Origin: an uncultured Candidatus Saccharibacteria bacterium
GTDB taxonomy: Bacteria > Patescibacteriota > Doudnabacteria > UBA920
Length of the DNA stretch: 64,000 bases
Assembly: GCA_964512925.1 (NCBI GenBank)
Contig: CAZEKH010000001.1
Span: 136,226 to 200,225 of the forward strand
Reading direction: 5' to 3'
This document shows positions 29,783-61,660 of the stretch, in pieces; the first letter of the stretch is position 1; the number at the start of each line of letters is the position of its first letter. Below the pieces are notes generated by a model that had not been told where the DNA came from, ran no database searches, and saw only the letters and a program-made list of their open reading frames with translations. A program made the translations under genes and the position numbers.

Positions 29783-29785
29783 CGT

Positions 29786-39923: not shown

Positions 39924-40307
39924 ATGCGTATCTGGTTGTTGGTGCATACTGGCTTGTGGTTGCTGATGATCGCACCCGCAAGCTGGTTGGGCTGCTTGTG
40001 GGCACTGGCAGGGGTGGTTGCGCCACTAGAAAAAATGCCCTGGTGGCAAAGGGTTGTTGCCGCGAGTATTTTTGCCCTCGGGTTAGTATACGCCACTGGG
40101 TTTATGATTGATCCATGGTTTACACCAGCAGGCACTGCTTGCGCAATGGTATTTTACTATCTGGGGGTTCTGTTGTGGGTCATTGGTCAGGGGCTTTGGT
40201 GGCTTCTGCCCAAAATGGTCTGGCCGTTTGTGGCCAGTCAAATCCTAATCGGAGTGCTTATACTCCGAAAATGGATGCACAGCAAGCCATTTTCGGTTCA
40301 ACCCTAG
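39924..40307 (+). CDS. hypothetical membrane protein, high GC
   Basis: TTGACA -35-like at 39875. SD GGGGGT. 4 TM helices. Confidence 0.35.
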   Translation: MRIWLLVHTGLWLLMIAPASWLGCLWALAGVVAPLEKMPWWQRVVAASIFALGLVYATGFMIDPWFTPAGTACAMVFYYLGVLLWVIGQGLWWLLPKMVWPFVASQILIGVLILRKWMHSKPFSVQP

Positions 40308-40399: not shown

Positions 40400-41005
40400 A
40401 AATATCACCCCCCAGCCCCCTCTTACTTTAAGAGGGGGAGGAGAAAAAAAGGCTCTAATTATTTTATAGAAATGATATTGTTCCGTCCCTCCCCTTAAGA
40501 TAAGGGGAGGTTAGGAGGGGATACTTTTTAGCGCATTTATTGTTTGCAGAATTTTTTCTCCTACGCCATCAATATTTTTAAATACATCAGTATTGTAAAA
40601 TCTTAATACAATAATATTTTGTTTATCTAAAAATTTAGTGCGGATTTCATCATTGATTTTATTTTGTATCTCTAAATGCTGTCCGCCGTCTAACTCAATA
40701 GCAAGTCTTAATTTTGAACAATAAAAATCCAAAATATAATTACCCACGCTATATTGCCGCGTAAATTTATAACCCGTTTGTCTGTTCCTTAAAATCTGCC
40801 AGAGTTTGTATTCTGCATCTGTTTGGTTGTTGCGAAGATTTTTTCTAAGTTGCTTTAACTGTGGGTGTTGGTAAAACATAAAGTATGAGTGAATATCACC
40901 CCCCAGCCCCCTCTCCTGCCAAAGGCGGGCAAGTATTTTAAGAGGGGGAGGTTATTTTTGCATTATCCCTCCCCTTAAGATAAGGGGAGGTTAGGAGGGG
41001 ATAGT
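40400..41005 (-). mobile_element. DUF559 endonuclease cassette bounded by ~110-bp direct repeats
   Basis: Direct repeats 40400-40510 and 40893-41005 (m1 ATCACCCCCCAGCCCCCTCT...TAAGAGGGGGAGG; m2 TCCCTCCCCTTAAGATAAGGGGAGGTTAGGAGGGGATA) flank the 369-bp ORF. Confidence 0.4.
40511..40879 (-). CDS. DUF559 endonuclease-domain protein (Vsr/restriction-endonuclease-like fold)
   Basis: YILDFYCSKLRLAIELDGGQH motif typical of DUF559. Confidence 0.75.
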   Translation of the reverse strand: MFYQHPQLKQLRKNLRNNQTDAEYKLWQILRNRQTGYKFTRQYSVGNYILDFYCSKLRLAIELDGGQHLEIQNKINDEIRTKFLDKQNIIVLRFYNTDVFKNIDGVGEKILQTINALKSIPS

Positions 41006-43677: not shown

Positions 43678-46584
43678 ATGGCTGATATCATTTCTATCCG
43701 CGGGGCGCGGATGCATAACTTAAAAAATATTGATGTAGATTTGCCTAGAAACAAGCTGGTGGTTTTAACCGGCCTGTCAGGCAGCGGCAAGTCGTCTTTG
43801 GCTTTTGACACCATCTATGCCGAAGGGCAGAGAAGGTATGTGGAAAGTTTGTCAGCTTATGCCAGACAGTTCATTGGTCTTATGGACAAGCCGGACGTGG
43901 ACAAAATAGAAGGTTTGTCCCCGGCAATTTCCATTGACCAAAAGTCCGCATCGCACAACCCTCGCTCTACTGTCGGAACCGTAACTGAAATTTATGACTA
44001 TATGAGGCTACTTTGGGCTCGTGTGGGAGTGCCTCATTGTCCGGTCTGCGGGAAAAAAATCCAAGGTCAAACTATCCAGGCAATGGCTGAGCAGCTTTTG
44101 GGTTTGGAAAAAGGCACAAGGCTGATGCTTTTGGCGCCTTTTATTAAAGATCAAAAAGGCGAACACCGGCATATATTTGAACAGATCAAAAAAGCCGGTT
44201 TTGCCCGCGTGCGTGTGGATGGCACAGTGATGGACTTAAACGAAGCCCAGGGTTTAAGCCTGGACAAGCAAAAAAAACATAATATAGAAGTGGTGGTGGA
44301 CCGCGTGGTGGTAGATCCGGCTGAACGGGGCAGACTCTCCGAGAGTCTGGAAAAGGCTGCGGATTTGGGCGATGGGATAGTTATAGCTTTGCGGGTTGCT
44401 GAAGAAACAAAACCTGACAGCAAGACGCGATCAACCTCTCCCCAGCCCTCCCCAAGTCTTGGGGAGGGAGGCTATAAGGAAATATTGCTCTCCCAAAAAT
44501 TCGCTTGTCCGGACGGACACATTCAGCTGTCTGAGCTGGACCCGAGGGATTTTTCTTTTAACAGCCCGCACGGAGCTTGTTCGGAGTGTAAGGGTTTGGG
44601 CACTAAGCTGACGGTGGAGCCGGATTTGGTTTTACCCAACCACCGGCTGACTTTGGCTGAAGGCGCTATCCGTCCCTGGAGCAAGACGACTTCCAGACAG
44701 TCCTGGTACTCGCGGATGCTGGAAGCCGTGGCCAAAGAATACGGTTTTTCCGTACACACTCCGGTGAAAGATTTGCCAAAAAAATATATTGATATTGTTT
44801 TGCACGGTTCAGGCGAGAAAAAAATCCGCATCTCCGGCGAGTTTAGGAGCGGCGACGGGGAGTTTGAGATGAACACGGTTTTTGAAGGCGTGGTGCCAAA
44901 CCTGGAGAGGCGGTACCGCGAGACTGACTCGGAATATATGCGCAGCGAAATAGAAAATTATATGCGCGTGCGCCAGTGTCAGGTTTGCCACGGCAAGCGC
45001 CTTAGGCTGGAAGTTTTGGCTGTGACCGTAGGCGGACAGGGGATAGTGGAGGTATCTGCTATGACTATAGACAAAGCCGCGGATTTTTTTGAAAAACTTT
45101 CCAAATCTTTGAGCGCCAAAGACAATCAGATTGCCAAACAAATTTTAAAGGAAATTTCCGCGCGTCTGTCTTTTTTGCTCAATGTTGGTTTGTCGTATTT
45201 GTCTTTGGACAGAACTGCGGATACTTTGTCCGGTGGGGAAGCCCAGCGCATCCGTTTGGCGACCCAGATCGGCAGCGGCCTGACCGGAGTTTTGTATATA
45301 TTGGACGAGCCATCTATCGGCCTGCATCAGCGCGACAACGGTAGACTCCTTAAAACATTGAAAGATTTAAGAGATTTGGGCAATACGGTGATAGTTGTAG
45401 AGCACGATGAGGAAACCATTCGCGAGGCGGATTGGGTGGTGGACATCGGACCAGGAGCCGGCAAGCACGGAGGCGAGCTGGTGGCGGAAGGTAAACCTTT
45501 GGATATTGAAAAAAATCCGAAAAGCATCACCGGGCAGTATTTGTCAGGAAAAGAATACATAGAAGTGCCGAAAAAAAGACGGCACGGCAACGGTAAAAAT
45601 ATTTCAGTTGTGGAAGCTTCTGAGTTTAACCTGAAAAATGTTACAGCCCAGATCCCGCTCGGCAAATTTGTCTGCGTAACCGGGGTGTCAGGTTCCGGCA
45701 AATCTACATTGATTTCTGACATTTTAGCCAGAGCGTTAAACAAACATTTTTGGGACAGCAAGGACGAACCAGGCAAGCATAAAAAGATCACGGGACTTGA
45801 ACACCTAGACAAAGTCATCAGCATTGACCAAAGCCCCATAGGCAGGACTCCGAGGTCAAACCCGGCTACTTACACCGGGCTGTTTACGCCGATCCGGGAG
45901 ATTTTTGCCGAAACCCGCGAAGCCAAGATGCGCGGCTATCAGGCTGGCAGGTTTAGTTTCAACGTCAAAGGCGGTCGTTGTGAGAAATGCGCCGGGGACG
46001 GGGTTTTGAAAGTCGAGATGAATTTTTTACCCGATGTCTATGTAACCTGCGAAGAGTGCAACGGCAAAAGGTATAACCGCCAGGCTTTGGAGATCCACTA
46101 TAAAGAAAAAACCATTTCCGATGTTTTGGAGATGACAGTTGACGAAGCAAAAACTTTTTTTGCAGCCGTGCCTGCCTTGCACAAAAAACTGGAAGTCTTG
46201 TCCCAGGTGGGCTTGGGCTATATGCGCCTGGGCCAGAACGCCACGACTTTGTCCGGCGGGGAAGCTCAGAGGATCAAACTTGCAACCGAACTGTCGCGCG
46301 CGTCTACCGGCCGCACTCTTTACCTTTTAGACGAGCCAACTACGGGCTTACATTTTGCGGACGTCAAACGTTTGATCCACGTTTTAAACAAACTGGTAGA
46401 CAAGGGCAACACTGTGGTGGTCATAGAACACAATCTGGATATGATCAAAACCGCGGATTGGCTTTTGGATATGGGTCCGGACGGGGGAGACAAGGGCGGA
46501 ACTATAGTTGCCGAAGGCACACCCGAAGATGTGGCAAAAGTCAAAGTTAGCTTTACCGGCCAATACCTAAAAAAGATTTTATAA
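43678..46584 (+). CDS. uvrA: excinuclease ABC subunit A
   Basis: Two ABC ATPase modules ([12 protein letters not shown]; [11 protein letters not shown]), zinc fingers and signature motifs. In-frame repeat insertion at 44430-44480 ([17 protein letters not shown]). Confidence 0.95.
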
Positions 46585-46605
46585 CCCACACATTTTATTT
46601 TATGA

Positions 46606-46633
46606 TATAATACCTTCATACACGACTGTATGA
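46606..46633. repeat. palindromic hairpin CTTCATACACGACTGTATGAAG; second copy at 47150-47178
   Basis: Identical hairpins flank the TrpR-like gene on both sides. Confidence 0.6.
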
Positions 46634-46657
46634 AGGTATTATTAATATACCAACAAA

Positions 46658-47149
46658 ATGACAAAGCTATCTAAAAGAAAATTAGACCCTGAGCATTTTG
46701 GGCACTATATAAATAATCTATGGTCAGCTTTTACTCTGCTAACCAGCAAGGAAGATATACGGCTTTTGTTTAAAGATATTTTTACCCATACGGAATATAA
46801 AATGTTTGCAAAACGATTGGAGATTGCTCGCCGTCTTTTAATGCAGGAGAGTTACGAGCAAATAGAAAAAGCATTAAATGTTACATCAAGGACTATTACC
46901 TCCGTAAATAATGTTCTTTCAGAAAAAGGGGATGGTTTTAGAAAAGTTCATGAAAAGTTTGAAAGAATTGAGGATGCTTATTGGAAGAAACAAAAAGAGA
47001 TCACGAAAAATTTGGAAAATCCTTTTCGGAAGAAAGCTCAAAGGAAAACTGTGGGCGGGGCGTTGCTCAAAGCCGGCGCCATAGCTTTAGACAAAGTAAT
47101 CGTCAAAAAGATAAAAGAAAAATCTGCAAAAAAATATTTAGATATATGA
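46658..47149 (+). CDS. TrpR-related YerC/YecD-family DNA-binding protein
   Basis: EYKMFAKRLEIARRLLMQESYEQIEKALNVTSRTITSV HTH region. Confidence 0.55.
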   Translation: MTKLSKRKLDPEHFGHYINNLWSAFTLLTSKEDIRLLFKDIFTHTEYKMFAKRLEIARRLLMQESYEQIEKALNVTSRTITSVNNVLSEKGDGFRKVHEKFERIEDAYWKKQKEITKNLENPFRKKAQRKTVGGALLKAGAIALDKVIVKKIKEKSAKKYLDI

Positions 47150-47475
47150 CACACCTTCATACACGACTGTATGAAGGTGTGGGTGGGGAAAGTGGGGGGT
47201 GGGTTGGTTTGTAGAATTGCCACAAAACTGACCAAATAAAGTTTGGATTTTAAATAATCCGCCTTAAATAAGGCGGATTATTTTTGCTATGGGGCTTGAT
47301 TTTTTTGAGGGTTTGTGTTAAAGTAACAAAGCTTTGAATGAGGAATCGACTAAACCTAAGGGTAAGGCCGATTTTTTGTTTGTTTGTCGCGGTGCAGGAG
47401 ATCTCGCACTACGGCAAAAAGCTGCGCCCGTCTCAAAAAGGCGGGTTAAGATTTCAGTTCACCAAGGAGAGGGAA

Positions 47476-48102
47476 ATGTCAGATTTTCGCAAGTTGTTTC
47501 TCGCGGCTTTCGCCGCGATTCTGATGTTCTGGGCGCCGCAGACTGCGTCGGCAGGTTTCGTGGACAATTTCGAATTGAACCCGAACGCTGGGGACGTGGG
47601 CGGTCTAGATGGTTCGAATACGATCTGGGTCGTCACGCCCACCCTGGACGTTGCGGGACCCATGTATGGAGGTCTCTCGTGCCACAGCGGCACGAGTTGT
47701 ATCGACATGGACGGCACTGGCCAGATGGCCGGCTCCCTCAAGACCATGTTCGCTACTATGGTTGGGGCGACTTACACCGCCAATTTCTGGATCGGGGGAA
47801 GTCAGCGCAACTTCCTTGGACCGGATGCGGTGACGGTGAATTTCGGGACCGCGATCCCACTGGTGGTCACGACGCCGCAAGGCGACACCAGCTGGACAAT
47901 GTACACAATGTCTTTCGTCGGTGATGGGAACAACCACTGGTTGGAATTTGTCGGTCAGGGAGCCGACAACGTCGGAGTGTTGCTGGACGACGTGGAACTG
48001 GCCGATAACTCGGTTCCGGAGCCCGCGACGTTCGCGTTGATCGGCGGAGGTCTGGTGCTTCTCGGCCTCAAACGCCGAGGTCGCAAGAACGCCAACAACT
48101 AG
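47476..48102 (+). CDS. secreted protein with C-terminal PEP-CTERM sorting signal; high GC (~60%)
   Basis: Start at Met preceded by GGAGAGGG SD (the ORF track's extension to 47338 is unlikely). Signal peptide. C-terminus VPEPATFALIGGGLVLLGLKRRGRK. Confidence 0.55.
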   Translation: MSDFRKLFLAAFAAILMFWAPQTASAGFVDNFELNPNAGDVGGLDGSNTIWVVTPTLDVAGPMYGGLSCHSGTSCIDMDGTGQMAGSLKTMFATMVGATYTANFWIGGSQRNFLGPDAVTVNFGTAIPLVVTTPQGDTSWTMYTMSFVGDGNNHWLEFVGQGADNVGVLLDDVELADNSVPEPATFALIGGGLVLLGLKRRGRKNANN

Positions 48103-48104
48103 TC

Positions 48105-48135
48105 CGCCCGCCCCGATGTCCATCGGGGCAGGCAA
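48105..48135 (+). terminator. hairpin / possible terminator
   Basis: GCCCCGATGTCCATCGGGGC. The same CCGATGTCCATCGG stem is used in the rpoC terminator. No T-run. Confidence 0.35.
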
Positions 48136-48289
48136 GGAGGACTAATCGCAATAAATTAGCCTGTTTCCCGCGTTCGGGCAGCAAGCAGGCTAATCGCTGT
48201 TTTTCGCACTCCCTAGCAGGACGGCGAAAAACACACGCAACAATGTTCGCTCGAGCCGCGACTCACTTCTGTGATCGCGGCTCTTTTCA

Positions 48290-49215
48290 TTTGTATAATT
48301 TTTTACATACTAATTAACTCCCCCAAGGCCCCCCGTCCGAACGCCCACGGCGGGCAGGCCTCTTTAAAAAAGAGGGGGGAATGAAGCGGGTAGGTTTGAA
48401 AAAGAGTGGAAAAAATATTACAGTCGTTGCAACCTCACCCCACCCCCTCTCCGATAGCGGAGAGGGGGAAGCGGATGCAAGATTCCAGCCGGAGTTTACC
48501 CCGATGAACATCGGGGCGGGAATGATACCTTTTCTATTTTTGTCATCCCCACATAACCGGGGATCTTGGTTTTTACCCTCTCCAATATGGGAGAGGGTGT
48601 CCCGATGAACATCGGGACGGGTGAGGTTTGAGCGATGGTGATAAAATATAAGTTGGTTTAATTTTCTAACATTGTTACCTCACCCCATCCCCCCGCCCGA
48701 ACGCCACAGGCGGGCAGGTCTCCCAAATGGGAGAGGGGGTAAAGAACGCATCATTCTCACCTAGTGGGAATGATATAGAAACGCGGAATGACGGAATATT
48801 TTTCCTATTTTCCCCAAGTTTCCCACATAGCTTTGCACAGGGGTTTTCCACTTTTGGGGGATAATTTTTGCTGTTTGTTGGGCTTTGACCAGAGGCAGGC
48901 TTTTGTGCCAAGATATAAAGACCACTTTTTACCCCCGTTAGAAGCAATCCGCCGTCAGGTGGATACCGAGCCTTTTTGTGCCCGGGCTTCTAACGGGGTG
49001 ATCTGGTTTGTGGGGACATTAACTCCCCCTGACCCCCTCTTTGAAAAAGAGGGGGAAATGAAAGGGGGTAGATTTGAAAAAGAGGGGAGAGGCTTAAAAT
49101 ATTACAATCATCGTAACCTCACCCCCCTACTTCGTTAAAACTTCGTAGGGCAAGCCAGCCCCCCGCCCGAACGCCCAAGCCGGGCAGGTCTCCGATAGCG
49201 GAGAGGGGAACTAAT
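48290..49215. repeat. ~0.9-kb non-coding repeat cluster
   Basis: Contains CCCTCTCC-loop-GGAGAGGG hairpins, CCGATGAACATCGG hairpins, CCCGAACGCC..GGCGGGCAGGTCTCC modules, a TGTCATCCCC..GGGGATC element and a 75-bp GGTGAGG..CCTCACC MITE-like unit. Confidence 0.7.
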
Positions 49216-50451
49216 TTGATATCTATGAATGAGCTGAAAATAAAAATTGAACAAGAGATTGTTAAAGCTTCCGGGATTTCTATCATCGGGCTTTTAAACG
49301 ACCTGGTGGAATACGCGGAAAGCCTCCGCGCTTCGGACATCCATATTGACCCGTACGAAAAAGATGTGCTGGTTCGTTTTCGCGTGGACGGGGTCTTGCA
49401 GGAGATATTCCGCTTGCCGAAAAATATCCATAGCGAAACAATCAGCCGCATCAAGATTTTGTGCGGCCTGAGGACTGACGAACATCAGGCGGCGCAGGAC
49501 GGACGCTTTCGGATGTTTTTTGATGTTGAAAAGAAAAAATTCATTGACGTCCGCGTGTCCGTGGTCCCAACTTACTTTGGCGAAAACGCGGTGATGCGTC
49601 TTTTGACTGACAAGGCCGAAGGTTTGTCTTTGGACGACTTGTATTTTTCCAAAGAAAACCAGAAAAAAATCCTTAAAGCCGCGCATAAGCCTTATGGGAT
49701 GATCTTAACTACCGGCCCTACGGGTTCGGGCAAAACCACCACGCTTTACGCGCTTATCAAGCTTTTACAGGGGCCAGAAATTTCTATCGTAACTATAGAA
49801 GACCCGATTGAGTACGCGATGCTGGGCATAGAGCAGATCCAGGTCAACTCCAGAACCAACTTAACTTTTGCCCAGGGACTTCGCGCCATCCTCAGGCAGG
49901 ACCCAAACATCATAATGGTTGGCGAAATCCGCGACTCAGAAACTGCCGGGATAGCGGTTAATACGGCGCTTACTGGACATTTGCTTTTGTCCACTCTTCA
50001 TACCAATGACCCGGCTACCACTCTGCCCAGGCTTTTGGATATGGGAATAGAGAGCTATCTGGTTGCCTCCACTGTTAACTTGGTTATCGGTCAGAGATTG
50101 GTTAGAAAAATTTGCGAGAGCTGCAGAGTAGTAAAAAAATTCACCCCTGCTGAAACCAAAAGTTTGTCCGAACATATCCCTTTAAAAATCTTAAAAAAAT
50201 TTAAACACTTCTATCAAGGTACCGGCTGCGATGAATGTAACAACACCGGGTATAAAGGCAGGGTGGCGCTGCACGAGGTGTTGGAAGTTGATGATCATAT
50301 CCGCGAGTTGATTTTGAAAAAAGCTTCCGCAACGGAGATCCGCCATCAGGCTTTTGAAAAAGGCACGGTGGCTATGGGAATGGATGGTCTTTTAAAAGCC
50401 GGGCAAGGCCTGACCACGGTGGAAGAGATACTCAGGATAAGCCATGAGTAG
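49216..50451 (+). CDS. pilB: type IV pilus assembly ATPase, GspE/PilB family (short form)
   Basis: Walker A GPTGSGKTTT, Asp and His boxes, C-terminal tetracysteine CESC...CDEC. Confidence 0.8.
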   Translation: MISMNELKIKIEQEIVKASGISIIGLLNDLVEYAESLRASDIHIDPYEKDVLVRFRVDGVLQEIFRLPKNIHSETISRIKILCGLRTDEHQAAQDGRFRMFFDVEKKKFIDVRVSVVPTYFGENAVMRLLTDKAEGLSLDDLYFSKENQKKILKAAHKPYGMILTTGPTGSGKTTTLYALIKLLQGPEISIVTIEDPIEYAMLGIEQIQVNSRTNLTFAQGLRAILRQDPNIIMVGEIRDSETAGIAVNTALTGHLLLSTLHTNDPATTLPRLLDMGIESYLVASTVNLVIGQRLVRKICESCRVVKKFTPAETKSLSEHIPLKILKKFKHFYQGTGCDECNNTGYKGRVALHEVLEVDDHIRELILKKASATEIRHQAFEKGTVAMGMDGLLKAGQGLTTVEEILRISHE

Positions 50452-50517
50452 AATTATTCTAATTAACCTAATTTCTAATTATTCTAAAATATTATTTTAT
50501 CCCCATAAGCAAAATTT

Positions 50518-50895
50518 TAATTTGCTGTCATCCCGGCCTTGAGCCGGGATCCAGGGTTATATGCAAAACGAATGTTATGTATACATCCTTGCAAACAAAA
50601 GAAACGGAACACTGTATGTGGGAGTGACCAATGACTTAATAAGAAGAGTTTATGAACATAAAAATGATTTAACAGAAGGCTTTACTAAAAAGTACCAGAT
50701 ACACACTTTAGTCTATTTTGAAAATACAGGAAATATAGAAAGCGCAATAAAAAGAGAAAAACAGTTAAAAAGATGGCAAAGACAATGGAAAATATCCCTT
50801 ATTGAAAAACAAAATCCGCAGTGGAATGAGTTATACTCTAACTTGACTTAACCCTGGATCCCGGATATCCGCCTAAGGCGGATTCCGGGATGACA
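50518..50895 (+). mobile_element. GIY-YIG gene bounded by inverted hairpin repeats
   Basis: Left TGTCATCCCGGCCTTGAGCCGGGATCCAGGGTT (50521-50553). Right AACCCTGGATCCCGGATATCCGCCTAAGGCGGATTCCGGGATGACA (50840-50887). Both are members of the same element family, in opposite orientation. Confidence 0.4.
50561..50851 (+). CDS. small stand-alone GIY-YIG nuclease (UPF0213-like) inserted between pilB and pilC
   Basis: CYVYILANKRNGTLYVGVTNDLIRRVYEHKN. Confidence 0.7.
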   Translation: MQNECYVYILANKRNGTLYVGVTNDLIRRVYEHKNDLTEGFTKKYQIHTLVYFENTGNIESAIKREKQLKRWQRQWKISLIEKQNPQWNELYSNLT

Positions 50896-51023
50896 AAATC
50901 TATTTAGCTAAAGCCCTATATTTGATTGGAGTTTATAACCACTTATTTAGAATAATTAGGTTAATTACCTACCCGAATGCCAAGTAAAGCGTGGTAGGCG
51001 GGGAAATTAGAATAATTTAACCC

Positions 51024-52142
51024 ATGTTTAATTTAAAAATTCAAAAAAACACACCTGAACTAGTTACTTCTCCGTCGTTTTTTACCCGCCTTGTTGAAGG
51101 TTCCATCTCCCGCTCGGAGCAGGTGCAGTTTGCAAAGAGGCTGGCTTTTTTGATGCGCGCGGGAGTGCCGATTTTAGAGAGCCTGCAGATTTTGGCCGGG
51201 CAGTCTAAGACTAAAGGCGGCAAAAAAATGTTAGAGAATTTGGTGTCAGAAGTTTCCAACGGGCATTTTTTGTCTACCGCAATGGCTAAGTTTTCTTCCG
51301 TGTTTGGTGACTTTGCGGTCAACATTGTCAAAGTCGGGGAACAGGCTGGCATCTTGCCTGAGAATTTAAACTATTTGGCGGAGGAGCTGAAAAAAAAGCA
51401 GGCGCTGAGAAAAAAAGTGATGGGCGCTTTGTTTTACCCGATATTTATAGTGGTGGCCACGCTTTTGTTGGTGGGACTTTTAACTGTCGTGGTGTTTCCT
51501 AAAGTTTTACCCATCTTTACCAGTATCAATGTGCCTTTGCCTGTTAGCACAAAAATTCTAATGTCAGTCAGCCGGTTTCTCATAGCTTATGGATTTTGGG
51601 TGTTGATTTTGATATTGATTTTTCCCTTCGCTCTTTTGTTTTTATCCCGCTTGCCTAAAGTCAAAGCCTGGCTGGATAAAGTTTTGCTGAAAATTCCGTT
51701 AGCCGGTAGCATTGCCCAGAACTATTATTTGGCTAACTTTTGCCGGACTATGGGACTGCTACTCAAAGGCGAGTCGCGCCTTGACGAAGCTTTGCAGACT
51801 TCCGCGCGTACCACGCAAAATATGGTTTACAGAAAGCAGCTGGAAAACCTGGCGCAGACTGTAGCGAAAGGCAGTAGGATGTCCGAGTATATGCTGAAAA
51901 ACAAAAAATATTTTCCGGATATGGTGTCTCATATGTTGGCCGTGGGGGAAACCGCGGGCAACCTAAGCGAGAGTTTTATGTATCTGGCGGATATGTACGA
52001 AACCGAGGTAGATGACCAGACAAAAAATTTATCTACTCTCATTGAGCCGGTTTTGATGGTGTTTATGGGCCTGTTGGTCGGTTTTGTTGCGATTTCCATC
52101 ATCACCCCAATTTATTCGGTTACCCAGAAATTACATCCATAA
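51024..52142 (+). CDS. pilC: type IV pilus inner-membrane platform protein PilC (GspF family)
   Basis: Two T2SSF repeats and three TM segments. Confidence 0.85.
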   Translation: MFNLKIQKNTPELVTSPSFFTRLVEGSISRSEQVQFAKRLAFLMRAGVPILESLQILAGQSKTKGGKKMLENLVSEVSNGHFLSTAMAKFSSVFGDFAVNIVKVGEQAGILPENLNYLAEELKKKQALRKKVMGALFYPIFIVVATLLLVGLLTVVVFPKVLPIFTSINVPLPVSTKILMSVSRFLIAYGFWVLILILIFPFALLFLSRLPKVKAWLDKVLLKIPLAGSIAQNYYLANFCRTMGLLLKGESRLDEALQTSARTTQNMVYRKQLENLAQTVAKGSRMSEYMLKNKKYFPDMVSHMLAVGETAGNLSESFMYLADMYETEVDDQTKNLSTLIEPVLMVFMGLLVGFVAISIITPIYSVTQKLHP

Positions 52143-52265
52143 TGCCCCTCTCCGAGCACGGAGACCTGCCCGCCGTGGGCGTTCGGGCGGGGGGTTAGGG
52201 TGAGGTAACAGTGTTTGAATATTAAATAAGCTTAAATTTTATTACCATCGCTTAAACCTCACCCC
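52142..52265. repeat. composite repeat including a 75-bp MITE-like element (GGTGAGGTAACAG...TTAAACCTCACC)
   Basis: Near-identical copy at 52870-52990. Related copies at 48610-48683 and 58930-59005. Confidence 0.7.
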
Positions 52266-52311
52266 AGCCCTCTCCCATATAGGAGAGGGAGTAAAAACAT
52301 TTCTGACAATT

Positions 52312-52797
52312 ATGATCAATTCTGCGCAATCTAAAAACGGGTTTACCCAACACCATTTTTTTTTAGAAAAAAATAGTGCTGGGTTTACCCTCATAGAAGT
52401 TTTGGTTTCAATGGGTATACTGGCAATGCTGGGGACTTTGGGACTGGTGTTTGGGTTGGATTTTTATCGGGCGTATGCTTTTAACTCGGAAAGGGATTTG
52501 GCGGTGGGGATTTTACAAAAAGCGCGCAGTCGCAGTTTGGCTAACATTAACCAAACAACTCACGGAGTTTGTATTATAGGTTCTAAATATATTTTGTTTG
52601 AGGGTGCTTTAAATTGCGATCCGAACAATTCAGCCAATGAAGTTTATGATGCAAACCCAGGCGTTTCAAATTCGGGACTACAAATTGTTTTTCAGCAGCT
52701 TTCCGGTAGGCCGAATTCTGTTGGTTCTGTAACATTAACTTCGGGCGTGAGATCTTCGGTTATTAACATTAACGCTGAGGGGATGGTGGAGTGGTAA
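52312..52797 (+). CDS. pseudopilin / minor pilin (prepilin-type N-terminal cleavage/methylation domain)
   Basis: KNSAGFTLIEVLVSMGILAMLG class III signal. Confidence 0.7.
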   Translation: MINSAQSKNGFTQHHFFLEKNSAGFTLIEVLVSMGILAMLGTLGLVFGLDFYRAYAFNSERDLAVGILQKARSRSLANINQTTHGVCIIGSKYILFEGALNCDPNNSANEVYDANPGVSNSGLQIVFQQLSGRPNSVGSVTLTSGVRSSVININAEGMVEW

Positions 52798-53056
52798 AAT
52801 AATTTAAGATTAAAGATTAAAGATTGAAGATTTAAACAATACGTTTTTATTTTATATGTATGAGTTTTTTCAAATCCCCCTCTCCACTCTCGGAGAGGGT
52901 TAGGGTGAGGTAACAGTGTTTGAATATTAAATAAGCTTAAGTTTTATTACCATCGCTTAAACCTCACCCCTTCCCTCTCCCATATGGGAGAGGGAGTGAA
53001 AAATCAAAAAAAATAGGGTTGAGATAATGTAAAAAAAATGCTAAACTAAGGCGCAA

Positions 53057-54526
53057 ATGAAAATATCAGGAAAAAAAATAAATACCCAGGCAGGCGGCAG
53101 CACGGTTGAGCTAATGGTGGCTTTGTTCGTGTTTGTCGTGTGTTTAGCCGGCATCATTGCCGTGGTTTTTGGCAACCAGTTTTTGTCCGTGGATACGGAG
53201 ATGAACGGAACTGCCATAGCCAAAGCCCAGGAGCTTTTGGATGAAAAGCGTAACGACGCAAGAACGAACTTTAACGGCGTGGTAGCCGGGGTTTCTACTG
53301 ACGGACAATTTACTAAGACAGTGGCAGTCAACAATCTTAACCAATGCCAAAAGGAAGTAACAAGTGAAGTTTCCTGGAACGACGGCACACGCTTACAAAA
53401 AGTTTCTTTAACTACTTTGATCAGCAACACTGACGAGCTCGTGGCGGTCAGCGGAGTTTGCTCAAACCAAAATGGTTTTTCTGGCCTTACTTGCCCCAGT
53501 ACATCGTCTTATTCGGATTGGAATTTTACTTTGCCTGGCGGCGGGACAGTTAAGTCTATGTTTGTGACTAGTAGAATTGTAAGTCTGGCGGTAGACCCTT
53601 CCGGCACGGCAATAACAGATTTTGACTATCTTAGGTTTACAGTTTCTTCTGGTTTAGTATTTAACAATGGAACATTTACAAGAACTCCTTCCGGCGTACG
53701 CACTTCGTCCGGCGGTTTAAACGGCGTAACATATGACAACTCAAAAACTTATGCGTATGGCGCTGGCAAGTGGAGTGGCGCAGGACAAGTGCAGATCATC
53801 AATGCCGACGCAACAAGACCAGGGGGAATGTATGCCATAGCCTTTGTCCTCGATAGTAACACTCAGGACGCTTTAAGCATATTTTTTAGGGACAATAAAA
53901 TTTACATAGGGACAAAAAATAACCCCTCAGGTCCTGAGCTTTATATCATCGACGTTACGAGCCCGGAGTCAGCTCAGATTTTAGCTACCAAAGAGATTGG
54001 CGCGGATGTAAAAAAGATTGTTGTTAGGGGGAGTTTGGCTTACTTAGCAACTTCGGACCCAAGCGCGGAAGCGCGGGTTTATGATATTGGGCAAGTCAAA
54101 AGTATTGCTTTGCCAGGCGTGATCAATTTTGTTGGAAATTTCAATGCCAGTTTGCTTTCCGGTGCCAACAGTTTGGCGGTTTTGGGCGCTACTGTGTTTT
54201 TGGGCGGCAGTGGCGCAAATAATTTTTATGAAATAAATACTTTAAACGCTTCTTCAATGTCTGAGATTACGCATCAACCGATAGGCGGGAGCATAAACGA
54301 CCTTTCCGCCAGCGGCAACCTGGCATATCTCGCCACTGACGGCGCCAATGTTTCAGGCAAGGAGCTTGAACTGTTAAATTACGCGGATATAAGTAGTCCT
54401 CAAACCTGTGCCATTGGTTCGGAAGACTTGCCAGCCTCGGCTTCGGCCGTGGTGTTAGATGGGGGATGGGTGTATGTGGGAATGAATGCTTCAAACAAAC
54501 CGTTGAGGATATATAAGTTTCAGTAG
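53057..54526 (+). CDS. pilin-like protein fused to an LVIVD-repeat beta-propeller domain (candidate pilus-tip adhesin)
   Basis: N-terminus AGGSTVELMVALFVFVV (G-x4-E prepilin-like). C-terminal half has repeated LYIIDVTSPES / ARVYDIGQV / LAYLATxD motifs resembling LVIVD repeats. Confidence 0.55.
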   Translation: MKISGKKINTQAGGSTVELMVALFVFVVCLAGIIAVVFGNQFLSVDTEMNGTAIAKAQELLDEKRNDARTNFNGVVAGVSTDGQFTKTVAVNNLNQCQKEVTSEVSWNDGTRLQKVSLTTLISNTDELVAVSGVCSNQNGFSGLTCPSTSSYSDWNFTLPGGGTVKSMFVTSRIVSLAVDPSGTAITDFDYLRFTVSSGLVFNNGTFTRTPSGVRTSSGGLNGVTYDNSKTYAYGAGKWSGAGQVQIINADATRPGGMYAIAFVLDSNTQDALSIFFRDNKIYIGTKNNPSGPELYIIDVTSPESAQILATKEIGADVKKIVVRGSLAYLATSDPSAEARVYDIGQVKSIALPGVINFVGNFNASLLSGANSLAVLGATVFLGGSGANNFYEINTLNASSMSEITHQPIGGSINDLSASGNLAYLATDGANVSGKELELLNYADISSPQTCAIGSEDLPASASAVVLDGGWVYVGMNASNKPLRIYKFQ

Positions 54527-54585
54527 ATTACATTTTAGATTCCCTCTCCAAGTGTTGGAGAGGGCTAGGGAGAGGTTGAATTATA

Positions 54586-55083
54586 ATGAGTTATAAATTA
54601 CAAAACCAAAATTTAACTCCCCCTAACCCCTCTTTGAAAAAGAGGGGTGAAGAAGCTGGGTTTACCCTGCTCGAGACTTTGCTTTATATCGCCCTCCTGT
54701 CTTTTTTTCTCGCGAGTTTGGTGGGTATCACTTATCAGTCTTTGGATTCAGCCGGGCAGATTGGCCGAAAAATTGCCATTCAGCAGGAAGCTAACTTTAT
54801 ACTTAGAAAAATGGACTGGGCTATAACCGGTGCTTCGGACATCACCGGAACTGCGGATCATTTAACAATCACAAGGACTGTTTCGCCTACTTCAGTTGAA
54901 TTTATCTCAGATACTCTAAACAAAGGTATGGACATCAAAGCCGAGCTTGGCCAGATGAAGTTAAACAGCAGTAACGTCAAAGTGGAAAATGTAAATTTTG
55001 TCATATCCGGCAGTCCGAAAAAAGTCGTAGCCAGTTTTGATATTAACGGAGAAAATTTTAGTTTGACTAGGTATTTGAGGTAA
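54586..55083 (+). CDS. pseudopilin / minor pilin
   Basis: EAGFTLLETLLYIALLSFFLASL. Confidence 0.7.
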   Translation: MSYKLQNQNLTPPNPSLKKRGEEAGFTLLETLLYIALLSFFLASLVGITYQSLDSAGQIGRKIAIQQEANFILRKMDWAITGASDITGTADHLTITRTVSPTSVEFISDTLNKGMDIKAELGQMKLNSSNVKVENVNFVISGSPKKVVASFDINGENFSLTRYLR

Positions 55084-55096
55084 CCGTTAGAGACTT

Positions 55097-55795
55097 ATGG
55101 AATATACTTATATTTTAAAAAGTAAAAAAGACGGTAAAATGTATACAGGTCTGACCAGTGATCTACGGAAGCGTTTTAAGGAGCATAATGAAGGTTTGGT
55201 TCCTTCTACAAAGAATAGAGGGCCATTTAAGATAATTTATTATGAAGCTTGTGTAAATAGACAAGATGCCGCAAGTAGAGAGATTTTTTTAAAAACTGGT
55301 ATGGGAAAGAGATATATAAAAAATCGTTTAAAACGCTTCCTGTCTCTAACGGCTCAAAGAGATAGTGCTAGCACCGTTATAAACAGCTTGCCAAAGTCAA
55401 GCGAAGTTTTTAACGGTGGATATATCGCTTTAACTTCCGTCATCATCGTTTCTTTATTGCTCCTGACTGTCATCACCGCTTTAAGCTCTGTTAACTATTT
55501 TTCCCGTTACAACATATTGGAAAACGAATATAAGGACAGAAGTTTTGCTTTGGCTGAAGGCTGTGTGGATTATGCTATAGGAAGACTGGCGGGAAATAGT
55601 AATTACATCGGTAATGAAACAGTAAACATCGGAGTCGGAACTTGTCAGGTGGCGTCAGTTTCTTCCGGGGCTTTTCCTAAAACTATCAGCACTGTCGGAA
55701 TTTTTCCACCCACGGCTGCAAAAAAAAGTTATACCAAACTTCAGGCAGTTGTAAGTTCAAGTTTCGCCATCAGTTCTTTTATAGAAAATCCATAA
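55097..55795 (+). CDS. GIY-YIG nuclease domain fused in frame to a pilin-like hydrophobic C-terminal half (possible insertion-generated fusion)
   Basis: First ~90 aa are GIY-YIG (YTYILKSKKDGKMYTGLTSDLRKRFKEHN). The remainder has GGYIALTSVIIVSLLLLTVITAL and an internal TTG that could start a separate minor-pilin ORF. Confidence 0.5.
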   Translation: MEYTYILKSKKDGKMYTGLTSDLRKRFKEHNEGLVPSTKNRGPFKIIYYEACVNRQDAASREIFLKTGMGKRYIKNRLKRFLSLTAQRDSASTVINSLPKSSEVFNGGYIALTSVIIVSLLLLTVITALSSVNYFSRYNILENEYKDRSFALAEGCVDYAIGRLAGNSNYIGNETVNIGVGTCQVASVSSGAFPKTISTVGIFPPTAAKKSYTKLQAVVSSSFAISSFIENP

Positions 55796-56112
55796 ATATG
55801 CTTGTCATTCCCTTGGCAAAGGGAATCTTGTACCCTCTCCCTCTCCGAGAGACGGGGATCTGCCCGCCTTGGGCGTTCGGGTGGGGGTAGGGGTGAGGTT
55901 ACGGATTTGATAAAATTAAAGATATTTAAATATGTAATATTAACCCCTGGATCCCGGATATCCCGCGAAGCGGGATTCCGGGATGACAGCAAAAATTTTT
56001 TGGAAAGATTGAATTTTGAACATTGAATCAAGATATTTCTAAAAAACCAACCGCCTTTACAAAAGGCGGATATAAAATTATAATTAAGCCATAAATATTA
56101 AATCATTAAAAT

Positions 56113-56625
56113 ATGAAAAAGTTTCTTAAAAAATCCCAAGGATTTACATTGATTGAAATCCTGGTAGTCATCGGTATCATCGCGGTGTTGGCAACCATTG
56201 TCATCATCGCCATTAACCCCGCCCGCCAGTTTGCCCAGTCAAGGAACACTCAGAGGACGGCCAATGTCCAGGCAATTTTAAATGCGGTAGGGCAGAGGAT
56301 TGCGGATAACAAAGGTGTGTTTGCCGGCACAGTAGGAGCCCAAACTTGTCCAAATTTAACCACCTCCGGAGCAAATGCCTTAACTGCTGGCACTGCTTAT
56401 AAAATAAAGGCTCCTGCAGTACTGGCAAGTAATGAGATTGATTTATCGTGTCTGGTTACAACTTATATTCCTTCTTTTCCTTATGATCCAAGCGATGCAG
56501 CTGCAGCGTGGACAAGCACAGCCGCTTATAATACCGGGTATACAATAGCAATTGATGCGAGCGGAAGAGCTACGGTAGCCGCGCCTACTGCTGAATTAGG
56601 AACGACTATTTCAATCACCCGCTAA
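56113..56625 (+). CDS. pilA: type IV major pilin
   Basis: MKKFLKKSQG|FTLIEILVVIGIIAVLATIVI canonical prepilin leader and N-terminal helix. Confidence 0.8.
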   Translation: MKKFLKKSQGFTLIEILVVIGIIAVLATIVIIAINPARQFAQSRNTQRTANVQAILNAVGQRIADNKGVFAGTVGAQTCPNLTTSGANALTAGTAYKIKAPAVLASNEIDLSCLVTTYIPSFPYDPSDAAAAWTSTAAYNTGYTIAIDASGRATVAAPTAELGTTISITR

Positions 56626-57790: not shown

Positions 57791-58582
57791 ATGACCTATA
57801 AAATGGCAAGGGCGTGTTTGATTGCCCTTATTTTTCTTTCGCTTGTGTGTATCGTACCACAGGCGGAAGCGACAACAATCACCCCGTGGCAGGGGTCAGC
57901 CGCGGGTCGGACATACAACGACCCTGACTTCTCCGACGCCAAGGCCGACGCCTTGGCTAACGGCTTTCAGATCGCGCCCTCAAGCGCGATCACGACACAG
58001 GTGCTGGCCAGCACCTGTGTGTTCGTCATTAACGAGGCGTCCAACGCTCCGACAGCGGGAGAAATCTCCCTACTGGATGCGTGGGTTCGGAGTGGCGGTA
58101 CGTTAGTTGTTACCGCCGATTCCGGTTCAGCTGGGGTTGGATCTGGGAACGCCATCTTTTCGTCTTTGGGCGTTGGCTTGTCATTCGCGGGGATTGCAAC
58201 TCCTGGGGTGATCTTACCGTCGCCGTTCTCAGCAGGAATCGTTGGACAAAGCCTCACAAATTCTCCCGCTTCTGGGGTAACTGGTGGATCAGCCGTTGTT
58301 CAGACGCTGATTCATTATGCCACTCTTGGGCTTGGGATCGTGTTCGGGATGGGAGACGCGAATGTCGCTGCCGCTCATAACGCAGTCGTGGATCAGGTGA
58401 ATTTGGCTTTGGTCAAAAACATCTGCACTGTCGCAGGGTGTGCTGGCAGTACGGGCGGGGGCCCAGGCCCTGATCCGGGTGGGCAGACTCCAGATATGCC
58501 GACTTGGATTTTGGCGGGAACCGGCGGCTTAGGGATTTGGGGTGTCCCTGAGTTTAGACGCCGCCGCCGCTCACGCAAATAA
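57791..58582 (+). CDS. secreted Gly/Ala-rich protein, high GC (~58%), C-terminus resembling a PEP-CTERM-like anchor
   Basis: Signal peptide MTYKMARACLIALIFLSLVCIVPQAEA. C-terminal ...LGIWGVPEFRRRRRSRK. Confidence 0.5.
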   Translation: MTYKMARACLIALIFLSLVCIVPQAEATTITPWQGSAAGRTYNDPDFSDAKADALANGFQIAPSSAITTQVLASTCVFVINEASNAPTAGEISLLDAWVRSGGTLVVTADSGSAGVGSGNAIFSSLGVGLSFAGIATPGVILPSPFSAGIVGQSLTNSPASGVTGGSAVVQTLIHYATLGLGIVFGMGDANVAAAHNAVVDQVNLALVKNICTVAGCAGSTGGGPGPDPGGQTPDMPTWILAGTGGLGIWGVPEFRRRRRSRK

Positions 58583-58779: not shown

Positions 58780-59100
58780 CCCTTGAGGGGGAGGGTTAGG
58801 GAGAGGTGATGCAGTGAATTTTTTTTCATCCTCGCGACTTGTCCTTCAGCAGTTTGAACGAAGGAGGAATGTGGGGATCTTGGTTTTTTGCCCTCTCCGA
58901 TATCGGAGAGGGTGTCCCGATGAACATCGGGACGGGTGAGATTTGAGCAATGGTGATAAAACATAAGTTTATTTAATTTTCTAACATTGTTACCTCACCC
59001 CTGACCCTCTCCGAAAGCGGAGAGGGGGAAGAGGATGCAAGATTCCCGCTGGAGTTTATCCCGATAAACATCGGGGCGGGAATGACAGCATTAAATGAAA
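58780..59100. repeat. second copy of the ~230-bp composite repeat unit (circularly permuted relative to 48437-48683)
   Basis: 58872-59005 matches 48553-48683. 59005-59095 matches 48437-48527, both at high identity. Confidence 0.75.
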
Positions 59101-59201
59101 AAAACCATAAATTTTGTGCAAAACCAGAGGATAAAGGGTGTATAAAACTCTTTGCAAAACAAGGCTTTTTATGGTAATATAAGTATATTATCAGCAAATT
59201 T

Positions 59202-59576
59202 ATGGTAGATATTACATTAAAAGCAATTGAGCAATTATTAGATCGGAAGTTAGAGCCGATTGTTGTTACATTGGATGCGGTTCAGGAAACAGTATCAGGT
59301 CATACTGAAAAGTTAGATAAATTACAAAAAGTAGTTTCTAACCATACTGAAATATTGGTTAAGCACTCAGAAAAACTTGATAATTTGGAGAAGATGGTTT
59401 CTGGACATACTGAGATTTTAAATTCTCATACTAAAATTTTGGATGGCATTAGCAAACAGCTTGTGGCTTTGTCTCAGGACAAGGCGGCAATGATAGAAAG
59501 ATTGGACAGGCATGAGAAAATCATTGAAGCTTTGGCAGCTAAGTTGAATTTGGACATCAAACATTTTTTTGTATAA
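59202..59576 (+). CDS. hypothetical coiled-coil protein with ~11-residue HTExL repeats
   Basis: Promoter TTGCAA..TAATAT upstream. Repeats SGHTEKLDKLQ / SNHTEILVKHS / SGHTEILNSHT. Confidence 0.45.
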   Translation: MVDITLKAIEQLLDRKLEPIVVTLDAVQETVSGHTEKLDKLQKVVSNHTEILVKHSEKLDNLEKMVSGHTEILNSHTKILDGISKQLVALSQDKAAMIERLDRHEKIIEALAAKLNLDIKHFFV

Positions 59577-59676
59577 GAAATTAGAAGAAAGTTTTTAAAT
59601 ATTAAAGTTTGTTACCTCACCCCAACCCTCTCCGAAAACGGAGAGGGGGTTTGGCCAGAAAATTAACAGAAACAAA

Positions 59677-60963
59677 ATGAAGAAAATATTATTGGGTTTT
59701 TTAAGTAGCGTGTTGGTTTTGGGACTTTTGCCGGTTTCGGTTTTAGCCATTGCGCCGGGCAAGGTTGTAGTTATAAAAAAAGTTATAAACGACAACGGTG
59801 GAAGCAAAGTTTCTGGTGATTTTACTATTGATCTCTATGTGAAAGACATCACCAGGCCGGCTAGCGAGCCTATGGTTTTGTGGTCAGAGTTTCCAGGACC
59901 CGTGTCGCCTGGCACAACTTTTAGCATAGGCGCTACTTCCTATAAAGTCACCGAGACCCCAGCGTCCGGTTATACAGCTTACTATTCTTCAGACTGCGAA
60001 GGCTCAGTTTCAAACGGAGAGGTTAAAACTTGTACTGTAACAAACAACGACCAGCCACCGAAAGTTACGGTTATAAAAAATGTAGTCGGTGGAAGCAAAA
60101 CTGCCGGGGATTTTGTAATGCAAGTTTATGGGCGCGATGTGACTCGGCCGGCGGATGAGCCCAATGTGCTTTTGGCGGAATTTCCAGGATCAGGCGGCGA
60201 GGGGACTACTGTAAATATCAATGCCGGAAGCTATGAAGTTAAAGAAATTGTGGATTTAGCTTATACCACCACTTTTTCCGAAGGTTGCAGCGGGACAGCC
60301 TCCGTTGGTCAGAACATCTCTTGTACAGTAACCAATACTTTTAAAAATTCTGAAGGTGGAAGTGGCGGAGGTTCGGGCGGCTCTGGCGGAAGCGGGGGAA
60401 CTGGAGGAGCTGGTGGAACTGGCGGCGGGGGTGGAGGTGGCGGTTTGCCAGTGACCTCTGGTTCAATATCCGGCAGCGTATATAACGATATCAATACAAA
60501 CCAAGTCAAAGACGGTACAGATACAGGACTTTCTGGCTTTACAGTTTTTCTGGATGCCAATGACAACGGACAGCTAGATTCCGGCGAGGCTACAGCTCTA
60601 AGCGGCGCAAACGGAGCCTATGTTTTTTCTGGAATACCTTTCGCAATTTATAATATTAGAGTAGTAGCTCAGCCAGGTTGGAGCATTGCTTTTCCAACCT
60701 TAGCATCTGGCAATAAATATACAGTCAATGTAAGCAGTATCCAACCCAATCATTTTGTTAAAGACTTTGCCTTAAACAACAAGGGTGTGATTTTAGGAGC
60801 GTCTACCGGCCCAGGTGGCAGTACAGCGCCCGGCGCTTCTGACCCTGCAATTTTAGGAGCAGTCACTGAACTGCCCAGAACAGGTTTGCCAGCCAGCCTG
60901 CCTGCATTGTTTGCAGGGCTTGGTATAGCGGGATTTTTACTGAAAAAGAAAAAATTTGTTTAA
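59677..60963 (+). CDS. LPXTG-anchored cell-surface protein
   Basis: Signal peptide. Gly-rich linker. C-terminal LPRTG + hydrophobic segment + KKKK tail. Confidence 0.7.
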   Translation: MKKILLGFLSSVLVLGLLPVSVLAIAPGKVVVIKKVINDNGGSKVSGDFTIDLYVKDITRPASEPMVLWSEFPGPVSPGTTFSIGATSYKVTETPASGYTAYYSSDCEGSVSNGEVKTCTVTNNDQPPKVTVIKNVVGGSKTAGDFVMQVYGRDVTRPADEPNVLLAEFPGSGGEGTTVNINAGSYEVKEIVDLAYTTTFSEGCSGTASVGQNISCTVTNTFKNSEGGSGGGSGGSGGSGGTGGAGGTGGGGGGGGLPVTSGSISGSVYNDINTNQVKDGTDTGLSGFTVFLDANDNGQLDSGEATALSGANGAYVFSGIPFAIYNIRVVAQPGWSIAFPTLASGNKYTVNVSSIQPNHFVKDFALNNKGVILGASTGPGGSTAPGASDPAILGAVTELPRTGLPASLPALFAGLGIAGFLLKKKKFV

Positions 60964-61002
60964 GAACAATCCCTTCCCAAAAATGGGAGGGGATTTTGGT
61001 AT

Positions 61003-61617: not shown

Positions 61618-61618
61618 A

Positions 61619-61660
61619 TCCAGCACTACTTTTTGCTACAAAAAGTGGTGCTGGATAAAA
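61619..61660. other. long perfect hairpin (possible terminator)
   Basis: TCCAGCACTACTTTTTG-cta-CAAAAAGTGGTGCTGGA. Confidence 0.4.

Follow-up and report, generated by a model that had tools for sequence, protein, structure and literature searches.

The DNA analyzed here is a 64-kb stretch of contig CAZEKH010000001.1 (the window), and the subject of this analysis is a gene for a small secreted protein with a PEP-CTERM sorting signal. The gene is an open reading frame (ORF) of 208 amino acids (aa) at 47476-48102 on the forward strand and is present in the public annotation. The genome is 43% GC, and the gene lies within a ~0.9-kb segment of it that has a yerC/trpR-like gene on one side and pilB on the other. 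In a 100-bp GC profile, values rise from 0.34-0.39 to 0.50-0.65 at ~47385 and drop again after ~48290. The segment includes a 5' leader of ~90 nt, which contains the Shine-Dalgarno (SD) sequence, and it ends in a terminator-like stem. Besides this stem and the perfect hairpin behind the stop codon, two more hairpins are found within it. A longer reading frame starting at 47338 was rejected, as it is not in the public annotation, the homologues begin at the methionine equivalent to 47476, and the SD precedes 47476. The sole promoter-like match upstream is a sigma-70-like candidate located ~150 nt ahead of the gene, within native AT-rich DNA. A sigma-54 promoter, typical of proteobacterial PEP-CTERM genes, was also considered; no GG-N10-GC match was found upstream of 47476. 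Coordinates of all features are collected in Table 1.

Table 1. Features of the PEP-CTERM gene, its surroundings, and other loci of the window.
Feature	Position	Strand	Basis
Gene for secreted PEP-CTERM protein, DUF642/CBM-like family	47476-48102	+	ORF, public annotation, homologues, composition
Foreign high-GC segment, ~0.9 kb (short 5' leader, ORF, donor-type 3' hairpins)	~47385-48290	+	GC profile
Sigma-70-like promoter candidate, TTGATT-N17-TAAAGT	47296-47324	+	Relaxed pattern scan; stricter scan did not list it
Strong Shine-Dalgarno, AAGGAGAGGG	47464-47473	+	Read from sequence, before ATG
Signal peptide, Sec-type, residues 1-26	47476-47553	+	Inspection, AlphaFold2 helix, homologue alignment
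Beta-sandwich (jelly-roll) domain, residues ~27-178, CBM-like	47554-48009	+	AlphaFold2, Foldseek, family matches
PEP-CTERM sorting domain, residues 179-203	48010-48084	+	TIGR02595, PF07589, AlphaFold2 helix
Perfect GC-rich hairpin	48104-48135	.	Immediately after stop codon
Terminator-like hairpin, gagccgcga...tcgcggctc then TTTTCATTT (T-run)	48253-48290	+	Read from sequence; loop 13 nt; 3' edge of high-GC segment
Native cluster of GC-rich palindromic REP/MITE-like repeats	48300-49215	.	Between island and pilB
SdrD_B/SpaA-like surface protein with LPRTG tail	59677-60963	+	Tail motif
Sortase	61003-61617	+	PF04203, TIGR01076
Small 103-aa LPRTG protein	61703-62014	+	Tail motif
Sortase	62080-62985	+	PF04203, TIGR01076
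143-aa signal-peptide/multi-pass membrane protein, 56.7% GC	3321-3752	+	Homologues, codon LLR
263-aa orphan, signal peptide, C-terminal hydrophobic stretch and RRRRRSRK tail, 57.1% GC	57791-58582	+	Composition, searches
87-aa GTG-start ORF, 54.2% GC, weak case	29217-29480	+	Public annotation, singleton
127-aa Trp/Leu-rich membrane ORF, 51.8% GC, weak case	39924-40307	+	Codon LLR -0.386, inside native range (-0.46 +/- 0.145)

A PEP-CTERM motif had been read at the end of this protein in a first-pass annotation made from the sequence, which proposed a TIGR02595 search as a check. The tail VPEPATFALIGGGLVLLGLKRRGRK (residues 179-203 of 208) was found to score 20.5 bits against TIGR02595 (cutoff 16) and 25.6 bits against PF07589 (cutoff 20.7), placing the protein above the curated cutoffs of both PEP-CTERM C-terminal domain models. 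It consists of VPEP, a 15-residue hydrophobic helix, and KRRGRK. The signal peptide at the other end is made up of MSDFRK, LFLAAFAAILMFWA, and PQTASA/G (the slash marks the predicted cleavage site); it was recognized by inspection, with no dedicated predictor, and aligns with the homologues' own signal peptides. An AlphaFold2 model built on the family alignment (mean predicted local distance difference test score, pLDDT, 86.4; predicted template modelling score 0.78) contains an N-terminal helix at residues 2-17 followed by a linker, a beta-sandwich at 28-177, and a C-terminal helix at 183-206. The top Foldseek matches of this model in the PDB were carbohydrate-binding modules (CBMs), namely CBM70 (hyaluronan-binding), CBM16, CBM4, CBM61, CBM35, and CBM22, as well as gingipain adhesin domains, with E-values of 1e-6 to 1e-5. 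Sequence identity to the solved CBMs is 11-20%. The choice-of-anchor C model (TIGR04362) matches over profile positions 31-156/157 with 50.3 bits (E 3e-13), below its cutoff of 120 bits, which makes the relationship a remote one and not membership. For DUF642 (PF04862), the 208-aa protein itself gave no match at E <= 10; since 30/60 of its aligned relatives do match, the relationship to DUF642 is at the superfamily level. The protein retains every nearly invariant residue of its family. It is thus an intact secreted module that ends in a PEP-CTERM tail and probably binds glycans or acts as an adhesin.

Only four homologues were found among 5.8 billion proteins, the close ones being P0002 (66% identity) and P0003 (47%). 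Both match the 208-aa protein in length and in order of parts: signal peptide, domain, VPEPAT, helix, and RRK. A profile of the homologues retrieves many more relatives (>20,000 cluster representatives at E <= 1e-3). Among the best 150 profile matches, 104 are shorter than 260 aa (~200 aa), nearly all with a signal peptide, and the tails of 92 of these 104 contain P[ED]P, the remainder being mostly VPAA/VPLP-type variants. Giant proteins in which the domain is repeated up to 13 times also occur among the profile matches. When 60 family members were aligned, 58 were found to match PF07589, 30 DUF642, and 6 CBM_4_9. By these alignments, the 208-aa protein is an ordinary member of a very large family of ~200-aa proteins composed of signal peptide, beta-sandwich, and PEP-CTERM; such full-length homology to a PEP-CTERM family is stronger evidence for the sorting signal than the score of the hidden Markov model (HMM). 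The contigs that carry the homologues are 56-63% GC overall: P0002 is found in contigs of 56-58% GC and P0003 in the 62.8% GC Acidobacteria sp. RBC033. The latter, 'uncultured Acidobacteria bacterium ... RBC033' (GCA_902826685.1, contig CADEFT010000001.1), is the sole labelled homologue genome. In RBC033, P0003 and a paralogue form a tandem pair adjoining lolA, with sigma-54 activators nearby.

Nowhere in the 64 kb does composition deviate more strongly than at the PEP-CTERM gene. The GC content of the window is 43.3% (300-bp windows: mean 0.432, standard deviation 0.062), lower than the background of ~47% given in the first-pass annotation. That of the gene is 58.7% (z = 3.4), and just 0.02% of other 627-bp windows are as high. 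GC content at third codon positions (GC3) is 0.727 (z = 3.6), compared to 0.446 +/- 0.077 with a maximum of 0.574 in the native reference set, which comprises the 38 confident native genes of the window. Moreover, the native codon score of the gene lies at z = -5.9, and its dinucleotide delta* of 0.273 is the highest of all windows. A donor-type codon table was derived from 22 genes of the Acidobacteria metagenome-assembled genome (MAG) encoding P0003, and a log-likelihood ratio (LLR) per codon was calculated against the native table. The gene scores +0.156, compared to -0.46 +/- 0.145 (maximum -0.185) for native genes; it agrees better with the Acidobacteria MAG table than with the native table, as does no other ORF of the window. 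The homologue genes themselves have codon LLRs of +0.20 to +0.27 and GC3 of 0.75-0.76. As the gene, with a GC3 of 0.73, comes near the homologues in both measures, it has therefore undergone minimal amelioration. The codon-usage and compositional analysis suggested in the first-pass annotation, where uniform GC would have spoken against transfer, hence showed the gene to be foreign in codon usage and dinucleotides, and GC to be non-uniform.

From GC3, dinucleotide delta*, codon usage, and the occurrence of homologues in 56-63% GC contigs, horizontal acquisition of the gene is strongly supported. The ~0.9-kb segment is foreign DNA carrying one intact gene, its SD, and donor-type 3' hairpins, and it combines the features of a horizontally acquired island: deviant synonymous-site composition, foreign affinity, absence from relatives, and physical linkage to the recipient. 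Absence from relatives was seen in 17 metagenomic relatives of the adjacent yerC/trpR-like gene, which are all found in 36-49% GC contigs, with no PEP-CTERM gene homologue near any of them. Gene order around the yerC-like gene is not conserved across these 17 loci, which therefore provide no unoccupied site for comparison and show only that the gene is missing from the vicinity. A mobile-element origin was also considered and rejected, since tblastn against 72,556 plasmids and 50,697 phages recovered no relative and no integrase, target-site duplication, or terminal inverted repeats were found. RNA genes do not account for the GC peaks either: at the gathering threshold, Rfam identified two tRNAs only, and E-value scans of 28980-29790 and 47150-49220 returned sub-threshold noise. 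Entry by uptake of free DNA and illegitimate recombination can be put forward as a guess.

The recipient has a native sortase locus at 59677-62985, where both parts of a sortase/LPXTG system, sortase enzymes and LPXTG-anchor substrates, are encoded. The sortases match PF04203 (4e-23 and 2e-24) and TIGR01076 (48.5 and 43.3 bits; cutoff 39.35). Their substrates were recognized by motif, as LPRTG followed by a transmembrane (TM) segment and KKKK/KRKK; the LPXTG HMM TIGR01167 scores the two tails at 13.3 and 9.7 bits, just below its cutoff of 15.9. The two sortases are paralogous and end in the near-identical motif TLQTSYP[IV]GTALKRYIVRAE. They score best, yet below cutoff, on class D/E sortase models. 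In the survey of Haft et al. (2006), PEP-CTERM is reported only in outer-membrane bacteria with exopolysaccharide (EPS) genes, and LPXTG almost only in Gram-positive-type envelopes (PMC1569441). By this published distribution, a PEP-CTERM gene in a sortase/LPXTG genome is unusual. The first-pass annotation had called the two unexpected neighbours; the sortases are real and the co-occurrence holds, but the sortase genes lie 11.6-15 kb from the PEP-CTERM gene and are not adjacent to it, and the LPRTG tails fall just short of the LPXTG cutoff. PEP-CTERM proteins normally co-occur with EpsH/exosortase, their median number per genome is 8, and genomes with one or two matches are treated as possible remnants or noise (Haft et al., 2006; PMC1569441). 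Pfam and NCBIfam scans of multi-pass membrane ORFs from the window yielded no exosortase match. A six-frame scan for tripartite C-termini in the 64 kb revealed one PEP tail, two LPRTG tails, and one unclassified tail, such that the window contains a single PEP-CTERM protein and not several.

Other genes of the window encode RpoC, ValS, TsaD, HtrA, RNase J1, UvrC, UvrA, PilB, PilC, several prepilins, and many small GIY-YIG proteins, and no outer-membrane or EPS genes were found among those annotated. That the envelope lacks an outer membrane is suggested by the sortases, their LPRTG substrates, and RNase J1. The recipient's proteins are all database singletons, and its relatives are present in 0.2-um groundwater filtrate. 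Members of the candidate phyla radiation (CPR) typically have sortase motifs and type IV pili (PMC5220378). Based on gene content, singleton proteins, and groundwater relatives, the recipient is likely to be a bacterium of the Patescibacteria/CPR type that lacks an outer membrane. At 49216-56625 lies a type IV pilus/pseudopilus cluster, which encodes a short PilB/GspE-like ATPase, PilC/GspF, and several prepilin-type proteins; no secretin gene was found among the ORFs examined in it. The cluster is interrupted by GIY-YIG genes and palindromic repeats. At least four small genes of the GIY-YIG nuclease family are present in the 64 kb (12887-13141, 15488-15727, 50561-50851, and 55097-55795; 25-37% GC), in one of which the domain is fused to a longer C-terminal region. 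These small genes may be selfish or homing elements.

In the first-pass annotation, the PEP-CTERM gene was one of five short ORFs of 58-62% GC, each described as having its own promoter-like and SD sequences, as encoding a signal-peptide or membrane protein, and as having a composition that suggests horizontal acquisition. All five are called as genes in the public annotation. Their GC content is in fact 51.8-58.7%; none reaches 62% and two are below 55%. All five do lie behind AT-rich TTGACA-like/TAnnnT sequences and a good SD, and the description of the products fits each except 29217-29480, for which no signal peptide, TM segment, family match, or Rfam match was found. As for acquisition, the proposal holds strongly for the PEP-CTERM gene and gains support from Acidobacteria-like relatives for 3321-3752, while 57791-58582 is an orphan. 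The remaining two, 29217-29480 and 39924-40307, are weak or native-like and are not convincing as foreign DNA. For 3321-3752, 11 homologues were found, the best of which, P0166 (55% identity), is encoded in the Acidobacteria RBC033 MAG. The four homologue loci examined are 63, 63, 63, and 53% GC with Acidobacteria-style neighbours. The codon LLR of -0.163 is above every native gene, just outside the native range. This is probably a second foreign gene, from an older or partly ameliorated transfer out of a similar source. The orphan at 57791-58582 has no homologue but itself in 5.8 billion proteins. Its tripartite C-terminus of PDMPTW, a hydrophobic stretch, and RRRRRSRK (PDMPTWILAGTGGLGIWGVPEFRRRRRSRK) is sorting-signal-like; no sorting-domain HMM matches it, and a weak DUF4350 match is below cutoff. 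Its GC1/2/3 values of 0.57/0.56/0.58 spread the excess evenly over codon positions, and Logan contig L005 links it physically to native genes. A single-sequence AlphaFold2 model of its product was uninformative (pLDDT 39).

Isolated high-GC genes were also observed in low-GC relatives. L025 carries one at 9304-10308 on the reverse strand, encoding a 334-aa secreted protein (GC3 0.70), and L029 a PurF-like amidophosphoribosyltransferase gene at 716-2140, also on the reverse strand (GC 0.56). Because relatives carry such genes too, recurrent sporadic uptake from GC-rich bacteria may be a habit of the lineage. A further source of high GC in the window is a set of GC-rich palindromic repeats resembling repetitive extragenic palindromic sequences and miniature inverted-repeat transposable elements (REP/MITE-like). 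Its families include CCCTCTCC-GAnA-GGAGAGGG (11 copies), CCCCTCTT...AAGAGGGG (7), TCATTCCCGCGGAGGCGGGAATC (5), and GGAGACCTGCCCGCC...GGGCGGGG. The repeats are found at 48300-49215 and 58870-59650 and scattered at 4367-4413, 7936-7997, 8635-8681, 29687-29774, 40402-40529, 52160-52297, and 52897-53002. Clusters of them lie immediately 3' of two high-GC ORFs, and because of the repeats intergenic GC reaches ~52%. Some copies apparently lie inside coding regions (TsaD 8005-9105, ValS 4019-6355, 54586-55083, and an 11-residue stretch in UvrA). The cluster between the island and pilB (48300-49215) comprises families D1, D2, D3, D5, D7, D8, D13, and D17, which recur in other parts of the window. None of the ORFs in this cluster is credible, as they are absent from the public annotation, and Rfam gave no match.

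Overall, the observations are probably best explained by recent transfer of a foreign PEP-CTERM gene, the tail of which would serve as an unprocessed membrane anchor unless the gene is a mere passenger. The gene would have arrived recently by horizontal transfer from an unsampled outer-membrane donor of ~57-63% GC, probably an acidobacterium, and would be transcribed from the native AT-rich promoter-like sequence upstream. The protein is predicted to be exported by Sec and to lose its signal peptide by cleavage after ASA26. Since sorting in the recipient is of the sortase/LPXTG kind and no exosortase was seen in the 64 kb, the PEP-CTERM helix is most likely not processed. It would then serve as a type-I (C-terminal stop-transfer) anchor: KRRGRK would stay in the cytoplasm, and the glycan-binding-like domain would be held outside the cell membrane, exposed at the surface.

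Several points weigh against this explanation. The nearest homologue is just 66% identical, the actual donor is unsampled, and the label 'Acidobacteria' rests on one labelled MAG. The island has no integrase, target-site duplication, or terminal (inverted) repeats to mark its entry, and the promoter candidate at 47296-47324 is a weak match to the consensus. The PEP-CTERM HMM alone is not very specific, given that the sortase-substrate LPRTG tail of 59677-60963 scores 15.4 bits on it, just below cutoff. The scan for exosortase covers membrane ORFs within 64 kb of a contig of 273,987 bp, and an exosortase may be encoded elsewhere. Taxonomy and envelope type of the recipient are deduced from the sortases, LPRTG tails, RNase J1, the secretin-less type IV pilus cluster, the GIY-YIG genes, and the filtrate relatives.

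A possible alternative, to which we assign a smaller share of probability, is that the gene is a neutral passenger: it was taken up recently, perhaps by natural transformation, is intact because it is young, and has no function in the recipient. This is equally compatible with the data. The barely ameliorated composition (GC3 0.73 vs 0.75 in homologues), the absence of the gene from all sampled relatives, the lack of a cognate sorting enzyme in view, and the weak and distant promoter match all agree with it. Conversely, the whole-gene sequence is identical in two sequencing runs and a third run contains the 5' junction, which is weak evidence against a passenger as the runs may sample one population. 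The intact state of the conserved family residues, signal peptide, and SD also speaks against it, again weakly.

If the gene does function as an unprocessed anchor, a more speculative extension would be transfer from host to episymbiont. A Patescibacteria-type cell would have taken the PEP-CTERM module and the 3321-3752 protein from an acidobacterial partner, and would display the module through an exosortase-independent anchor in order to bind the partner's exopolysaccharide. The basis for an acidobacterial partner is that the best or near-best homologues of both genes are found in one Acidobacteria MAG. We consider this scenario rather unlikely, and a variant in which an exosortase-like enzyme works in a cell that has sortases and no outer membrane would be rarer still.

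It is improbable that the gene belongs to a functional PEP-CTERM/exosortase system, with an exosortase and more PEP-CTERM proteins encoded outside the window and sorting as in the donors. Such a system would fit the normal co-occurrence of PEP-CTERM with EpsH/exosortase (PMC1569441), the tail is fully intact, and the window is a minor part of the genome. However, the 64 kb have a single PEP-CTERM tail and no exosortase match among the membrane ORFs scanned, and the gene is a lone, recently transferred cassette without EPS or Xrt neighbours. The sortase/LPXTG machinery of the recipient is moreover typical of envelopes without an outer membrane, and one or two PEP-CTERM matches in a genome are regarded by Haft et al. 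as likely remnants or noise (PMC1569441).

A chimera of assembly or binning, in which a fragment of a high-GC organism was misjoined into a low-GC contig, is very unlikely and has been largely refuted. The sharp compositional break would be expected of a chimera, as would a further observation: unitigs from two runs start exactly at 47475, 1 nt before the ATG, and overlap by 30 nt with the upstream unitig, whose end is at 47504. The de Bruijn graph thus branches reproducibly where the gene starts, which may be due to a second context or a gene variant in the samples. Nevertheless, both junctions are covered by Logan unitigs that are 100% identical to the window, from three runs in total. At the 5' junction, unitigs 46583-47504 (L003) and 46571-47492 (L004) from runs SRR14271332 and SRR14271336 cross the low-to-high GC step near 47385. 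At the 3' junction, unitigs 47475-48619 (L001) and 47475-48408 (L002) from runs SRR14271332 and SRR14271335 lead from the gene into the native repeat cluster. With native sequence on both sides of the island, two chimeric joins would be required. Least probable of all is a native gene whose high GC reflects its Gly/Ala/Val/Thr-rich make-up as a secreted protein: Gly/Ala-rich secreted proteins do raise GC1 and GC2, which is probably part of the signal in 57791-58582 and 39924-40307, but for 47476-48102 this is refuted by an excess at synonymous sites, foreign codon and dinucleotide signatures, and homologues in high-GC genomes.

What is distinctive about the preferred explanation, recent transfer of a foreign PEP-CTERM gene, is the host: a fresh and intact gene of this kind in a genome whose own surface proteins are sorted by sortases. 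No paper linking PEP-CTERM with Patescibacteria/CPR was found in the literature searched. If the recipient is confirmed as a CPR episymbiont, two independent insertions with Acidobacteria-type relatives would offer an inexpensive genomic hint at its partner and would demonstrate that sorting signals are transferable across envelope types. Host-to-episymbiont transfers, if true, would point to the symbiont's host. Should the genome have an exosortase, or should the gene be silent, the case would be one of routine horizontal transfer.

Compared to the PEP-CTERM/exosortase (EpsH/XrtA) system (TIGR02595/PF07589; PMC1569441), the 208-aa protein shares the small ~200-aa architecture of thousands of members. 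It differs in being a single copy in a low-GC genome with sortases and LPRTG substrates, where neither an exosortase nor an EPS locus nor a second PEP-CTERM protein is in view and no sigma-54-type promoter precedes the gene. Orphan PEP-CTERM genes without EpsH have been described, two of them in Chlorobium tepidum (Haft et al., 2006; PMC1569441), and these are alike in having a tail without a detectable exosortase. Here, in contrast, the absence of exosortase covers 64 kb, and the host also has sortase/LPXTG, a pairing not found in the 2006 survey. With the DUF642, choice-of-anchor C, and CBM4-9-16-35-61 modules, the protein shares a predicted jelly-roll fold and family-level matches, whereas the 208-aa protein itself reaches the cutoff of none of these models. 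The closest counterpart in a labelled genome is the tandem pair of PEP-CTERM paralogues of RBC033, with 47% identity over the full length, equal domain order and length, and similar GC and codon usage. While those paralogues stand side by side in an outer-membrane-type genome of 63% GC (LolA and sigma-54 activators nearby), the window carries one copy in an alien background.

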